Origin: a virus
Lineage: Duplodnaviria > Caudoviricetes
IMG/VR virus record: IMGVR_UViG_3300003580_000011
Span: 1-29,971 of that record
Direction: 5' to 3' (one strand)
Length of the DNA stretch: 29,971 bases
Part shown: piece by piece, positions 8,696 to 29,971 of the stretch
How positions within the stretch are numbered: the first letter of the stretch is position 1
Layout: the number at the start of each line of letters is the position of its first letter
Notes under the pieces: model-generated
The model's database searches: none
Told to the model about the DNA's origin: nothing
The model's input: only the letters and a program-made list of their open reading frames with translations
Made by a program: the position numbers and the translations under genes

Positions 8696-8744
8696 ATAAC
8701 AAGTTCACTCACAAATCGCAACAAACTTTAAGGAGTAAAGATCA

Positions 8745-10088
8745 ATGTTCAAATCCGAACACCTTCAAGAGAAGTGGGCCCCACTCCTCAAGCATGACGA
8801 TCTCCCCGAGATCAAAGATTCATACAGAAGAAACGTAACCGCAGTTCTTCTGGAGAACCAAGAGAAATTCCTCCGTGAGTCAGAAATGCTCACCGAGGCA
8901 CCTACAAACGTAACCGCACCTACAGGCGCTGTTAGAACTTTCGACCCCGTGCTGATCTCCCTGATCCGCCGTTCGATGCCTAACCTGATCGCTTATGATA
9001 TTGCTAGCGTTCAGCCAATGTCAGGTCCTACGGGTCTGATCTTCGCAATGCGTTCACGCTACAACACCCCAGCTGGCGCAGAGGCACTGTTCAATGAGCC
9101 TAACGCTGGTTTCTCTGGTGCAGGTACTGCTGGTTACGATCCTACTGCATCAGCTTCAACAGACAATGACGCAGAAGGTTCAAACCCAGGTCTCCTGAAT
9201 GATTCAGGCACCTACGAACTGACTGGTGATGCTCTGGGCATGACCACATCAGCCTCTGAAGCACTTGGCGATGGTAGCGGCACCAACTTCAGAGAGATGG
9301 CATTCAGCATCGAGAAGGTTGCTGTTACTGCTCGCTCACGCGCTCTGAAAGCTGAGTACTCACTGGAACTGGCTCAAGACCTCCGTGCTATCCATGGTCT
9401 GGATGCAGAGGCTGAGTTGGCAAACATTCTGTCAACCGAAATCCTGGCAGAAATCAACCGTGAGGTTATCCGTTCAGTATACATCACCGCTAGACCTGGT
9501 GCTCAGAACAACGTTGCCTCTGCTGGCATCTTCGATCTGGACCTGGATTCAAACGGTCGCTGGTCTGTTGAGAAGTTCAAGGGTCTGCTGTTCCAAGTCG
9601 AGCGCGAAGCAAACGCTATCGCCCAAGAGACTCGTAGAGGAAAGGGCAACATCATCGTCTGCTCTGCTGACGTTGCATCTGCTCTTACCATGGCAGGCGT
9701 TCTGGACTACACCCCAGCACTCAATGCTAACCTGAATGTTGATGACACTGGCAGCACCTTCGCTGGCACCATCAACGGCAAGTTCAAGGTCTACATTGAC
9801 CCATATTCCTCCAACGTTTCCAACGATCAGTACTTTGTCGTTGGTTATAAGGGTTCCAATCCTTATGACGCTGGTCTGTTCTACTGCCCATACGTTCCTC
9901 TCCAGATGGTTCGTGCAGTTGGTGAGGACACCTTCCAGCCCAAGATTGGCTTCAAGACTCGCTACGGTATGCAAGCAAACCCATTCAGCACAGGTGCCGT
10001 CAATGACGGTACTCAACCTACTTCTGGTATTGGCGCTGCAAATGCAAACCGTTACTACAGAAGAGTCTTGGTTCGCAACCTTATGTGA
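8745..10088 (+). CDS. g23: major capsid protein gp23
   Basis: VQPMSGPTGLIFAMR, SRALKAEYSLELAQDLRAIHGLDAEAEL, FQPKIGFKTRYG. Confidence 0.99.
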   Translation: MFKSEHLQEKWAPLLKHDDLPEIKDSYRRNVTAVLLENQEKFLRESEMLTEAPTNVTAPTGAVRTFDPVLISLIRRSMPNLIAYDIASVQPMSGPTGLIFAMRSRYNTPAGAEALFNEPNAGFSGAGTAGYDPTASASTDNDAEGSNPGLLNDSGTYELTGDALGMTTSASEALGDGSGTNFREMAFSIEKVAVTARSRALKAEYSLELAQDLRAIHGLDAEAELANILSTEILAEINREVIRSVYITARPGAQNNVASAGIFDLDLDSNGRWSVEKFKGLLFQVEREANAIAQETRRGKGNIIVCSADVASALTMAGVLDYTPALNANLNVDDTGSTFAGTINGKFKVYIDPYSSNVSNDQYFVVGYKGSNPYDAGLFYCPYVPLQMVRAVGEDTFQPKIGFKTRYGMQANPFSTGAVNDGTQPTSGIGAANANRYYRRVLVRNLM

Positions 10089-10107
10089 TATCAGTTCACA
10101 TATCATC

Positions 10108-10133
10108 AAGGGACCTTCGGGTCCCTTTTTTTT
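10108..10133 (+). terminator. rho-independent terminator after g23
   Basis: AAGGGACC-TTCG-GGTCCCTT stem with UUCG tetraloop, running into a T tract. Confidence 0.92.
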
Positions 10134-10191
10134 ATGGGTATAAACTTGTAGGCATAAATTATTGTTGTGTGTATGCAAAAGAATACTTTTA

Positions 10192-10200
10192 TGATATAAT
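10192..10200 (+). promoter_or_regulatory. sigma70-type extended -10 promoter TGaTATAAT
   Basis: TG-n-TATAAT, weak -35 (ATGCAA) upstream; no ORF between it and the next terminator. Confidence 0.65.
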
Positions 10201-10205
10201 GAAGG

Positions 10206-10252
10206 TTCCGTGTGAAGGAAGTGCTAGGGGGTCCGAAAGGACCCCTTTTTTT
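10206..10252 (+). ncRNA. putative small RNA (~46 nt)
   Basis: Bounded by an extended -10 box and a GC-rich terminator; contains TTCC-GTGTGAA-GGAA mini-hairpin; no gene-sized ORF. Confidence 0.5.
10228..10252 (+). terminator. rho-independent terminator
   Basis: GGGGTCC-GAAA-GGACCCC followed by T7. Confidence 0.9.
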
Positions 10253-10255
10253 ATG

Positions 10256-10263
10256 TCTAAATA
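10256..10263 (+). promoter_or_regulatory. late promoter variant TCTAAATA
   Basis: NNTAAATA box directly after the terminator and before ORF 10289. Confidence 0.65.
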
Positions 10264-10288
10264 ATTTCAGAACTTTATTATTTTTGTT

Positions 10289-10486
10289 ATGGACTACAAA
10301 CCATATTCACAAGAGTGGCATAGAAAAAGATATTTGAAAGAAGCAATTGACAAGTATTTGGATGATTACGTTGACCCAACTGTAATCCTAGATGATCTTC
10401 GCGATGTACTTCACGTTCGTTCAGAAGTGGCGTATCAAGAATTCAATCGGATCAATCAATTAGAGCACTATCTCTCGGAAGAATAA
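10289..10486 (+). CDS. hypothetical protein
   Basis: 65-aa ORF after a late box, packed with the next gene. Confidence 0.75.
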   Translation: MDYKPYSQEWHRKRYLKEAIDKYLDDYVDPTVILDDLRDVLHVRSEVAYQEFNRINQLEHYLSEE

Positions 10487-10487
10487 T

Positions 10488-10802
10488 ATGCTGTCAACTC
10501 AATACAGACTACGATTGGAGTTTATCTGTAATAAGATCGCTAACAAGGAAGAAGTCAAACTTGAAGATATGATTTGGGCAGAAAAAATTGCCAAGAGATA
10601 TACAACTGCTAGGGACTGGTTGAACAAAGCACGTCGTCAGGCTGCTCAAGATATTGAGGATGGAACGATTGAGGATTTTATGAATAAGATGGGTATTGGG
10701 GACCCCGACCCATCTAATTACAAGAAGGGGTTCTCAAGTGCTGAGGAAATTCTAGATTGGTTCAAGCAAGACAAACCAGAAGACTGGAGACAGAGGGACT
10801 AA
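10488..10802 (+). CDS. hypothetical protein
   Basis: 104-aa ORF MLSTQYRLRLEFIC...DWRQRD, contiguous with neighbours. Confidence 0.8.
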   Translation: MLSTQYRLRLEFICNKIANKEEVKLEDMIWAEKIAKRYTTARDWLNKARRQAAQDIEDGTIEDFMNKMGIGDPDPSNYKKGFSSAEEILDWFKQDKPEDWRQRD

Positions 10803-10805
10803 ATA
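10798..10805 (+). promoter_or_regulatory. late promoter ACTAAATA
   Basis: Box overlapping the upstream stop, before g3. Confidence 0.65.
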
Positions 10806-10825
10806 TTATATAACAGGAGGTGAGA

Positions 10826-11389
10826 ATGTCTTACGTAACCACACCAATCACAAACAGAAATTTTTTATCACCAGGTGGTTTTGATCTCGTCATTGAAGAG
10901 GCACCAAAAGTTCAATTTTTCTGCCAGTCTGCAAACATTCCAGCGATCTCAATGATTGCTGCAGAACAAGCAACAAGACTTAGGAATCTACCAATTCCTG
11001 GTGATGAACTGTATTACCAAGATCTAGAGGTAAATTTCTTGGTAGATGAAGACATGGGAAATTATCTAGAGATTCATAACTGGATGAGATCTTTGGGGTT
11101 CCCTAAGTATGGTGGCGAATACGATTTTACTGAAAGAGGAGTAGATAATTCTTACAGCAGTTCTCGTATTGCAACTAACAAAGTCAAAACTTTCAACGAA
11201 AAATATGAGAGATCAGACATTACTTTGATTATTCTCAACAGCAGTTACAATAGAATAAAAACAGTAAACTTCAAAGACTGTTTCCCAGTATCACTTTCTA
11301 CATTGAGATTTGATTCTCAGATATCTGATGTAGAATATCTAAATGCTTCAGTAGCATTCAAATACACTTACTTTGACATTAATGATTGA
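10826..11389 (+). CDS. g3: tail tube terminator / tail completion protein gp3
   Basis: NRNFLSPGGF, FFCQSANIP, IPGDELYY, FLVDEDM, FPVSLSTLRFD; AGGAGG RBS favours the ATG at 10826. Confidence 0.85.
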   Translation: MSYVTTPITNRNFLSPGGFDLVIEEAPKVQFFCQSANIPAISMIAAEQATRLRNLPIPGDELYYQDLEVNFLVDEDMGNYLEIHNWMRSLGFPKYGGEYDFTERGVDNSYSSSRIATNKVKTFNEKYERSDITLIILNSSYNRIKTVNFKDCFPVSLSTLRFDSQISDVEYLNASVAFKYTYFDIND

Positions 11390-11810
11390 TCTTGAATCTT
11401 TGCAAACCAAATGGGAGAAAGACTCTCAGATGGGTGATGAACTTAGTGACGAATCTAAAAAAATTCCCTCACTACATTCAAAATATTTCAAAATTTATAA
11501 TGAAATCTGCTTGCTGAAAAGGAAGTCAGAGTCAGATCTGAAAGTTCTTAGAAGGAAAAGATGGGAATATTATACAGGAAAAGCAGACCCAGAAGTATAC
11601 GAATCAGAACCTTTTGACTTCAAAGTTCTAAAGCAAGACATCGATAGATATCTGGATAGTGATCCTAAGATACAAAAATTACAACTAAAGATTGACTACT
11701 ACGAACAACTTGTACTGTTCTTAGAGTCTATCCTGAAACAAATCAGTGACAGGCAATGGCAAATTAGGAACGCAATTGAGTTTCAAAAACTAACATTAGG
11801 ATACGGATGA
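11382..11810 (+). CDS. uvsY: recombination mediator UvsY
   Basis: IPSLHSKY, WEYYTGKA, RQWQIRNAIEF; precedes uvsW. ATG at 11382 chosen. Confidence 0.88.
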   Translation: MIDLESLQTKWEKDSQMGDELSDESKKIPSLHSKYFKIYNEICLLKRKSESDLKVLRRKRWEYYTGKADPEVYESEPFDFKVLKQDIDRYLDSDPKIQKLQLKIDYYEQLVLFLESILKQISDRQWQIRNAIEFQKLTLGYG

Positions 11811-23698: not shown

Positions 23699-24635
23699 TG
23701 ATTTTCTTTGGGTTGAGAAGTATCGACCCAAAACTGTGAACGATTGCATCCTGCCAAATGCAATCAAGAAACCTCTCCTTGAGTTTGTAGAGACTGGGGA
23801 GATTCCTAATCTACTGCTTGCGGGTCCTGCAGGTATTGGCAAAACAACGGTTGCCCGAGCGTTGTGTGAAGAACTTGGGTGTGATTATATTGTTATCAAT
23901 GGATCAGATGAAGGACGATTTCTTGACACTGTACGGAACCAAGCAAAGAATTTTGCATCGACCGTATCACTTCAAGCAACTGGTAAACCAAAGGTCATCA
24001 TTATTGATGAGGCTGACAACACCACCCACGATGTTCAACTCCTACTACGGGCAAACATTGAGGCGTTTTATAGCAACTGTAGATTCATCTTCACTTGCAA
24101 CTACAAAAACAAAATCATCGAACCCCTGCACTCCCGATGTGCAGTCATCGACTTTTCAATCGGTAGCAAAGACAAACCTGCAATCGCAGCACAGTTTTTC
24201 AACCGTCTCAGGACTATACTTGAGGAGGAGAATGTACAATATGATCCAAAGGTACTTGCCGAACTAATCAACAAACACTTCCCTGACTGGCGACGTGTTC
24301 TAAATGAGTGTCAGCGGCATGGCACTGGTGGGTCTATCGACACCTCTATCCTGGTTCAGATCACTGACGTTGATACCAACACTCTGGTCAAAAACCTCAA
24401 GGATAAGCGGTTTGGTGAGGTTAGGAAGTGGGTGGTCAACAACCTAGACAATGATCCTGCAACCATCCTGAGGCGTGTCTACGACGCCCTGTACGCCGCT
24501 CTGGAGGGGTCTAGCATCCCTGCTGCTGTCCTGGTCATTGCTAAGTACCAATATCAAACTGCCTTCGTGGCAGATCAGGAGATCAATCTCCTAGCGTGTC
24601 TAACTGAAATTATGGCGGAGTGTGAATTCAAATGA
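23688..24635 (+). CDS. g44: clamp loader large subunit gp44
   Basis: WVEKYRP, GPAGIGKT, IIDEAD, PLHSRC, FPDWRR. Confidence 0.96.
   Translation: MSRNDFLWVEKYRPKTVNDCILPNAIKKPLLEFVETGEIPNLLLAGPAGIGKTTVARALCEELGCDYIVINGSDEGRFLDTVRNQAKNFASTVSLQATGKPKVIIIDEADNTTHDVQLLLRANIEAFYSNCRFIFTCNYKNKIIEPLHSRCAVIDFSIGSKDKPAIAAQFFNRLRTILEEENVQYDPKVLAELINKHFPDWRRVLNECQRHGTGGSIDTSILVQITDVDTNTLVKNLKDKRFGEVRKWVVNNLDNDPATILRRVYDALYAALEGSSIPAAVLVIAKYQYQTAFVADQEINLLACLTEIMAECEFK
24618..24635 (+). repeat. 18-bp direct repeat, left copy (GAGTGTGAATTCAAATGA)
   Basis: Identical to 25139-25156; encodes ECEFK* of gp44. Confidence 0.95.
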
Positions 24636-25156
24636 ATTTGGACTTTTTAAATGAGTATTGGAATATTGTTGGATCTGAACAAGGAACACAAGCAATTCGA
24701 CAGGACAAGCATTTTGAACCTCTTACCAATCTTTTATTGAAAGGTAACAATTCAGGTATTGCTGAAGATAAAATCCCAGTTAAATATAGACCTTGGAAAA
24801 AATGGGACTTACATTTTCCTTCTTTACGTATTGCTATTGAATATAAAAGCATTACCTCAAAAAGTATTGAAAAGTGTAAATATCTTCGTGTTGAAGAAGC
24901 ACTAGGATCTGCAATTGATCTGAAAAAACAAAACGATAATTATCGTTTGGGATTTTTGTTAGTTTTTGCTTTCCCATTTGAAAATGAAAAAATCATTAGA
25001 GCAAGAGATTATATGATCAGCGCATTTAATGATATGGTCAGTGACGGTATTTACGACTTCTTCTGTCCATTGCAAACTAGTTCTGTGGATAATCACTATG
25101 AATTGTCTACAAAAAATAATTTTAAAAAATTTATGTGTGAGTGTGAATTCAAATGA
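24632..25156 (+). CDS. PD-(D/E)XK nuclease resembling the XhoI/PaeR7I type II restriction endonuclease family
   Basis: YRPWKKWDL...AIEYKS...RVEEALGSAIDL...LGFLLV matches my recollection of the family pattern RP-K-WD...AIE-KS...R-EEA-G-A-DL; AT-rich; flanked by direct repeats. Confidence 0.7.
   Translation: MNLDFLNEYWNIVGSEQGTQAIRQDKHFEPLTNLLLKGNNSGIAEDKIPVKYRPWKKWDLHFPSLRIAIEYKSITSKSIEKCKYLRVEEALGSAIDLKKQNDNYRLGFLLVFAFPFENEKIIRARDYMISAFNDMVSDGIYDFFCPLQTSSVDNHYELSTKNNFKKFMCECEFK
25139..25156 (+). repeat. 18-bp direct repeat, right copy
   Basis: Identical to 24618-24635. Confidence 0.95.
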
Positions 25157-29406: not shown

Positions 29407-29971
29407 AAGGAATTCTATGTACGTGTGGATGTTTATGTCCTGGAGGATTATTCACAACCACATCAGCACACACCTTATAGTAAGGGGACTTGGGATGAAA
29501 TCGTATTCCACGTAACATCAAATCCCCACAATTCTTGAGTCTCGCAATCTCAAAATCTAACCTTTTGTTAGCAACTAATTGTGAGTTCAATTCAATCTGA
29601 GTTCGTGCTGCTTGTTTACAAAGATCTTGTAAGCTCTTATCGATGGGTGTACTCCATGTCATAGAGAAACCAATGCCTAGACTGTAGTTATCTTTCTGAC
29701 CAGTCCTGGTTTTTTTGTGGAATTGAATGTCTCCTGGATTATCAATTAGACCGTCTCCAATTGGATCGCCATTATCATCGAAGGCACCGTAGTTATCACT
29801 CACATCATAAACAGGATCCATATAATAAGGTTCATATGGTTTAGAAGCAGAAGCACTTCCTGTTACATAGGGAGTGAAGTTGCGAGTGGGACCTTGACAC
29901 TGTATCCCTCCACCATATGTGTTTGTAATGTATGGTCCTTGAAGGACTTGTATAGCCTGGTTTGTAACGGA
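29294..29971 (-). CDS. hypothetical protein, 5'-truncated by the window end
   Basis: Frame stays open from the window edge: SVTNQAIQVLQGPYITNTYGGGIQCQGPTRNFTPYVTG...YMDPVYD...; the ORF-track start at 29821 is probably internal. Confidence 0.8.
   Translation of the reverse strand, partial: SVTNQAIQVLQGPYITNTYGGGIQCQGPTRNFTPYVTGSASASKPYEPYYMDPVYDVSDNYGAFDDNGDPIGDGLIDNPGDIQFHKKTRTGQKDNYSLGIGFSMTWSTPIDKSLQDLCKQAARTQIELNSQLVANKRLDFEIARLKNCGDLMLRGIRFHPKSPYYKVCADVVVNNPPGHKHPHVHRIPSTSSSSPEQRESLQSLHSSDAAQLGAPLQTRSSFVSP

Follow-up and report, generated by a model that had tools for sequence, protein, structure and literature searches.

A T4-like cyanophage carries, behind its major capsid gene, a predicted RNA gene. 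The product would be about 45 nt long, with a 5′ head complementary to the anticodon arm of the host tRNA-Val(CAC), and it likely binds and disables the tRNA, a reading to which a probability of about 0.6 is given. The virus likely acts on this host tRNA and not on the host small RNA Yfr1, because the predicted RNA begins with 19 bases that are exactly complementary to the anticodon arm of the GUG-decoding valine tRNA. The initial annotation had proposed a discrete phage RNA titrating Yfr1. The part that stands is the RNA itself, apparently about 45 nt long, with a host-polymerase-type promoter, a base-pairing action and a conserved head, but not Yfr1 as its partner.

Layout of the predicted unit and its neighbourhood

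The window (the whole stretch of DNA that was analysed, 29,971 nucleotides) is a virus contig estimated to be 16% complete, and its T4-like genes include g17, g23, g55, g47/g46 and those of the clamp loader. By g23 the closest isolate is Synechococcus phage S-BM3 (96.4% identity), the source host of which is WH 7803, and the host is therefore probably a marine Synechococcus. The features of the region are as follows.

8745..10088, + strand: g23, the major capsid gene of the T4-like cyanophage, lying upstream of the unit (phrog_138, E 1e-171)
10108-10134, + strand: predicted intrinsic terminator of g23, hairpin 10108-10127 and T run (terminator prediction, fold)
10138..10194 (10135-10194 in a wider delimitation), + strand: deletion scar that retains the leader element of a small gp134-like gene and its final codons, CVCKRILL* (alignment and translation)
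10192-10200, + strand: extended -10 promoter TGATATAAT (sequence; spacing across relatives)
10206..10224, + strand: antisense head, fully complementary to positions 23-41 of the host tRNA-Val(CAC) (complementarity; conserved core 10210-10221)
10206-10222, + strand: motif TTCC-GTGTGAA-GGAA-GT (read directly in the sequence)
10226-10252, + strand: GAAA-loop intrinsic terminator ending the predicted RNA (terminator prediction, fold)
10257..10263, + strand: T4-type late promoter box CTAAATA, serving the next genes and lying outside the RNA (sequence)
10289..10486, + strand: downstream hypothetical gene, 65 aa (PHROG match, phrog_1461)

From the promoter spacing, the start is predicted at about 10206-10208 and the RNA from about 10207 to 10251. 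The promoter scan lacks the site at 10192-10200 because there is no -35 match there. The terminators, the -10 box, the motif and the GAAA-loop terminator all lie where the initial annotation had placed them; its statements that no gene-sized ORF is present (none of at least 60 aa on the + strand at the unit) and that the next gene has a late box of its own (TAAATA at 10258-10263) also agree with the sequence. TGNTATAAT is present just twice in the window. The predicted fold of the unit consists of the terminator and one hairpin of 3-4 bp, and nothing more. No Rfam family was found over the unit, whether in the window itself or at the 20 related loci, and ARAGORN called 0 tRNA genes in the window.

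Two structural aspects of the earlier description hold locally but are not conserved. The insulation by two terminators is present in the window, but in S-BM3 the unit directly follows the g23 stop; the double insulation is therefore local and the unit itself is the part that has been kept. Likewise, the TTCC/GGAA pairing said to place the seed in a hairpin loop is present here but is not conserved across units, the outer Ts being kept in 57/74 and 33/74 distinct units and the CC being mostly missing in a shifted register. The predicted TTCC/GGAA hairpin mirrors the tRNA anticodon stem.

In Syn9 and S-RIM2, a gp134-like gene is found by alignment at this site, between two terminators. The window has lost this gene, whereas its leader, its last codons and the RNA unit have stayed intact, and the stop codon of the remnant overlaps the promoter of the unit. 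The lost protein has 58 aa, is Cys-rich and lacks a Pfam match, and the conserved leader of its gene belongs, in Syn9, to an inverted repeat. The downstream phrog_1461 gene is not a constant neighbour of the RNA, as other units lie in other contexts. Elsewhere in the window, a 174-aa ORF (24632-25156) lies not far from two DNA methyltransferase genes; it has no PHROG match and a weak match to XhoI restriction endonuclease (E 4e-4, below the cut-off). Over 8700-11400, the contigs of three metatranscriptomes from the same study matched parts of g23 only, and these were from divergent relatives.

Complementarity to tRNA-Val(CAC) and to Yfr1

Positions 10206-10224 pair perfectly, over 19 nt, with positions 23-41 of Synechococcus tRNA-Val(CAC), which comprise the 3′ strand of the D stem and the anticodon stem and loop. 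When the complementary 17-mer is searched in bacterial genomes, anticodon arms of tRNA-Val(CAC) account for 113 of the 119 matches listed. The duplex of head and tRNA is predicted at -35 to -37 kcal/mol, and the 18-nt head (-35.0) has its best partner among 41 host tRNAs in this one, the second best being Val(GAC) at -24.6 kcal/mol; the strongest of 500 shuffled heads reaches -22.4 kcal/mol against tRNA-Val(CAC), and the net binding of the head is -21.1 kcal/mol, all of these being minimum free energies from a model that leaves aside tRNA tertiary structure and modifications. The unselected bases that follow the core also agree with the cyanobacterial tRNA (T in 66/74 and G in 53/74 distinct units).

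The preference is also seen in whole genomes. Across 14 named phage genomes, Val(CAC) accounts for seven of the eight anticodon-covering antisense matches that precede a terminator, and the same scan with shuffled tRNA sets gives 0-2 matches in total. No antisense to the anticodon arms of the other 40 host tRNAs was found in these 14 genomes. A lone 11-mer antisense match to Pro(CGG) is at the level of the shuffles, and a 14-nt complement of tRNA-Gly(CCC) positions 26-39 behind a late box in S-PM2 (81546+, L411) is a single case at chance level. Pairing between the tRNA variable loop and the 3′ arm of the terminator was dropped as well, since the polarity is wrong and the terminators vary.

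The competing proposal is that of a Yfr2 mimic which sponges the host Yfr1/Yfr10, and this is very unlikely. The motif ACUCCUCACAC occurs in Yfr1/Yfr10 and the 5′ end of Yfr2 is complementary to it (PMC2518516), in agreement with the initial annotation on both motifs, and a reporter assay shows that Yfr2 does counteract the repression exerted by Yfr1 (PMC6778093). The phage motif lies at the 5′ end, as in Yfr2, and could form a bulged duplex of 11-12 bp with the Yfr1 motif, which is single-stranded. However, perfect pairing with the five host Yfr1 copies extends over no more than 6-7 nt, the duplex energy of -15.7 (~-16) kcal/mol is equalled by 135 of 500 shuffled heads, and the net binding of -10.5 kcal/mol is weaker than that of all five host Cyano-1 (Yfr2) RNAs (-14.2 to -20.3 kcal/mol). 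The two As that had been regarded as extra are exactly the bases required for pairing with tRNA-Val(CAC). Moreover, Yfr1 motifs are present in Prochlorococcus (PMC2518516), yet the element is found in 0/9 Prochlorococcus phages. A weak side binding of the head to Yfr1 is possible, and it leaves the sequence unexplained.

The unit resembles Yfr2 (Cyano-1, RF01701) in its small size, in the conserved motif with GUGUGA near the 5′ end and in a pairing action, which for the unit is predicted (PMC6778093, PMC2518516, PMC2662882). It differs in being phage-encoded, in having no Rfam match, and in being a perfect complement of a tRNA and not of Yfr1. Yfr2 has a long bulged stem with a conserved central loop of 12 nt (PMC2662882), and this structure is absent from the predicted fold of the unit. 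The Cyano-1 model, which does match 5/5 host genomes, has no match in the window, either at the gathering score or at E<=10.

Recurrence of the unit, a second register and wcaG arrays

An exact 14-mer scan of the viral collection lists at least 120 loci (the A set) and about 640 are estimated in total, part of which are chance matches in GC-rich coding DNA. Among the 120 listed loci, a -10 or late box lies just 5′ of the 14-mer in 73 and a terminator just 3′ in 67. Lack of conservation among relatives had been named by the initial annotation as one refuting outcome, but the motif does recur, with promoter and terminator both flanking it in 56 of the 120 listed loci; two of the 120 lie inside tRNA genes and many of the remaining ones are GC-rich chance matches. 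The core lies within the fetched flank of 4/80 g23 loci, some of which are partial and many not from cyanophages. The contexts of the units include positions behind g23, behind a gp134-like gene, in a tRNA-Thr trailer and in the leader of tRNA genes, many units being leaders or trailers in phage tRNA arrays, and no protein gene is a constant neighbour across them. The terminator sequence 3′ of the head varies among units. The predicted unit is real, and it is conserved beyond chance.

The spacing of promoter and core is informative of the start site. For this comparison, those distinct AT-rich units that have a -10 box were taken from 103 of the 120 A-set loci and from 120 loci of a C set. Of 52 units that have no complementary base upstream of the GTGTG core, 49 show a distance of 6-7 between the -10 box and the core; of 50 units that have at least three such bases, 48 show a distance of 8-11. 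The spacing thus grows with the upstream complement, and the complementarity therefore starts at the predicted +1. A late-type promoter is found in 14/75 A-set units.

Related sequences served as controls. Promoter and terminator surround a shifted anti-Val(CAC) 15-mer in 64 of 120 listed matches, the equivalent anti-Val(GAC) 15-mer in 0/38, and a G26 variant common in other phyla in 1/69. Hence, the view that the match is a chance one, or a non-functional minus-strand scrap of a tRNA, is already largely refuted and is barely credible. Phages do carry tRNA debris and the match is short, but the window has no predicted tRNA gene, the similarity is limited to 19 nt, and the core has outlived the deletion of the adjoining gene and recurs in unrelated contexts, besides the control counts of 0/38 and 1/69. 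Two promoter-led units with a G26-type head variant (L829, L864), one of them with a terminator, lie in an otherwise cyanophage-like context. A phage tRNA array with an anti-Val(CAC) head as a tRNA trailer also contains an abiF RNA match (L100:178-214).

Other phages carry a second antisense register. The sequence ACCCCTTCCGTGTG is complementary to tRNA-Val(CAC) positions 33-46. Among the 120 matches listed, 38 have a terminator behind them, and most of the distinct loci among those carry GGCGATAC(T) upstream, which matches positions 62-70 of the acceptor strand. The second RNA family is thus predicted to be bipartite, with antisense parts against positions 62-70 and 32-46, in the 3′ half of tRNA-Val(CAC). 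Examples are S-CAM1 19771+ (L427), L617, L564 and L547, and no Rfam match is found over the family. This register and the Yfr1 complement have just GUGUG in common, which argues further against a Yfr2 mimic; the second register covers the other side of the tRNA and Yfr1 cannot account for it.

The motif could alternatively act as DNA, either as an attachment or recombination core for the tRNA-Val(CAC) gene or as a protein-binding box at the start site. The anticodon loops of tRNAs are crossover sites of integrases, and one viral contig (L551) carries a long, attachment-site-like antisense copy of the 3′ half of tRNA-Val(CAC). However, the head (positions 23-41) lacks the tRNA 3′ half that would be required to restore the gene, and no integrase is found among the 36 window proteins scanned, from a contig estimated to be 16% complete. 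The orientation of the head and its distance to promoter and terminator are fixed across units, and the two registers have too few bases in common to be compatible with a protein box. A role as DNA is thus highly improbable, and a copy like that of L551 is a possible origin of the second register.

Another group of second-register matches lies directly behind the Rfam wcaG RNA (RF01761), and 6/8 of the loci submitted match its model. This motif has been described from T4-like cyanophages (PMC2864571), and it is treated as a cis-regulatory candidate, with no mention of tRNA pairing in the relevant parts of PMC2864571 and PMC9964418. In seven named phages, UGG tails of the wcaG arrays match the 3′ ends of host tRNAs, with lengths (G-U pairs counted) of 11-15 nt for Leu(CAG), 10-13 nt for Pro(CGG), 11-13 nt for Ala(GGC) and 8 nt for Arg(CCG), and 1.6% of background TGG sites reach 11 nt. 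The arrays are located as follows.

S-RSM4: about 29570-29750, - strand
S-CAM4: about 161200-161340, + strand
S-PM2: 122836, + strand
Syn9: 163212, + strand
S-BM3: 52476, - strand
S-RIM8: 157828, + strand
Bellamy: 157534-157930, + strand

An anti-Val(CAC) module forms part of some of these arrays; the one in S-PM2 is degenerate. The window has no match to the wcaG model and none of the four tail patterns. The predicted RNA is linked to wcaG by its occurrence in the same phages and by the module right behind wcaG with the second anti-Val(CAC) register, but it differs as a single promoter-to-terminator RNA without a UGG tail or pseudoknot.

Distribution, codon usage and proposed action

Either register is present in 11/17 Synechococcus phages, 0/9 Prochlorococcus phages and 0/1 Methylophilales phage, with both exact patterns missing from 6/17 of the Synechococcus phages. 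As phages share ancestry, 11/17 versus 0/9 is to be read as a pattern and not as independent events. P-RSM4, whose host MIT9303 is presumably a high-GC Prochlorococcus, is without the element, and this counts against the proposed action on the tRNA. In the host family, the tRNA-Val(CAC) arm occurs in 147/201 genomes, mostly as a single copy, and in 138/144 genomes larger than 2.0 Mb versus 9/57 at or below 2.0 Mb; a looser Val(CAC) pattern is likewise missing from three small, low-GC genomes. The two registers never occur together in 27 named phages; their strict mutual exclusion is broken by one metagenomic contig (behind L003 and L621) that has both.

A phage-encoded tRNA-Val(UAC) accompanies the element in 9/9 carriers versus 2/5 non-carriers among the 14 whole phage genomes. 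The head pairs poorly with the tRNA-Val(UAC) of the six carriers of the same register (net 0 to -5 kcal/mol). Against those of S-CAM1 and S-CAM4, both of which use the other register, it reaches -28 kcal/mol (net -11 to -15). The tRNA-Val(UAC) of these two phages has an arm similar to that of the host CAC tRNA (L435/L436, L445), and their use of the other register possibly represents self-avoidance (n = 2).

Codon usage differs in the direction expected of the matched tRNAs. GUG makes up 60% of Val codons in 140 kb of one host genome versus 10% in the window, and its frequency per 1000 codons (40.8 in the host sample versus 6.8 in the phages) is the third largest gap, the three largest host-minus-phage gaps being GCC, CUG and GUG. 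CCG and CGG have the highest host/phage ratios among 16 codons listed. These five (GCC, CUG, GUG, CCG and CGG) are the codons of the tRNAs matched by the RNAs and the wcaG tails.

The action proposed for the RNA is one of antisense pairing. The host RNA polymerase would start the RNA at about 10207, and its GUGUGAA would pair first with the anticodon loop, after which the anticodon and D stems would be opened to give a duplex of 18-19 bp. The tRNA-Val(CAC) would then stop decoding GUG or would go to a host RNase. GUG-rich host mRNAs would slow down and translation would shift to phage mRNAs, which are GUG-poor and would be served by the phage tRNA-Val(UAC) that the RNA spares. Some observations count against such disabling. 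The GUG use of carriers is no lower than that of non-carriers (8.5-13.5% versus 7.7-10.8% of Val codons), and the host has a tRNA-Val(UAC) of its own. This tRNA may read GUG by wobble, which could blunt the effect of losing Val(CAC). The late-type promoters on some units fit less well with an early takeover.

The same complementarity would suit an RNA that pairs with tRNA-Val(CAC) for another purpose, for example as a guide for a nuclease or ligase, as a shield of the anticodon against a defence nuclease, or as a sponge of a tRNA half or precursor. This main rival is unlikely, though not negligibly so. It is favoured by the similar GUG use of carriers and non-carriers, by the late promoters on some units and by the many units that form leaders or trailers within phage tRNA arrays. 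Nonetheless, no protein gene is constantly found beside the RNA across contexts, a shield covering the anticodon would block decoding as well, and the tRNAs matched by the RNAs and wcaG tails are those that read host-favoured, phage-rare codons.

The disabling of a host tRNA by a phage RNA would resemble several known systems in part. AgvB and AsxR are phage anti-sRNA sponges and 3′ETS-leuZ is a tRNA-spacer sponge. The predicted unit is like them in being an RNA of about 50 nt that pairs through its 5′ region and ends in a terminator, and some of its copies lie in tRNA leaders or trailers; however, all of these bind regulatory sRNAs, whereas the unit matches a tRNA anticodon arm. T-even infection cleaves the E. 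coli tRNA-Leu(CAG), the reader of a host-common, phage-rare codon, and the anticodon nucleases PrrC, RloC and PARIS AriB are proteins, mostly of host defence. The loss of a single isoacceptor during infection is common to these and to what is proposed for the unit, but the agent here would be a phage antisense RNA and not a protein nuclease. The T-box riboswitch reads a tRNA anticodon by pairing, in cis and over 3-4 nt at each end; in the unit, by contrast, the pairing extends over 15-19 nt and would open up the arm, and there is no gene for it to regulate.

In the mostly open-access literature searched on cyanophage and phage RNAs, no antisense RNA against a host tRNA is described, and within that scope such an RNA from a phage is new in kind. 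AT-rich cyanomyoviruses are usually said to add tRNAs in their GC-rich Synechococcus hosts (PMC11726456, PMC9964418). The supply of tRNAs decides Syn9 infection, and the word 'antisense' is absent from the text available for that study (PMC11726456). The RNA described here points to the other half of this account, in which the preferred tRNA of the host would be removed by antisense pairing. As the element is present in the cultured, well-studied phages Syn9, S-RIM2, S-RIM8, Syn19 and S-BM3, it is directly testable.

It is conceivable, though held tentatively and at a little under even odds, that T4-like cyanophages of Synechococcus carry an antisense kit against the host tRNAs for GC-rich codons, made up of the anti-Val(CAC) RNA, the bipartite family and the wcaG arrays (Leu(CAG), Pro(CGG), Ala(GGC) and Arg(CCG)), which would silence host-favoured decoding while the phages supply their own tRNAs for A/U codons. 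If this is true, the tRNA pool would be reprogrammed by RNA alone, and the orphan wcaG motif would gain a function.
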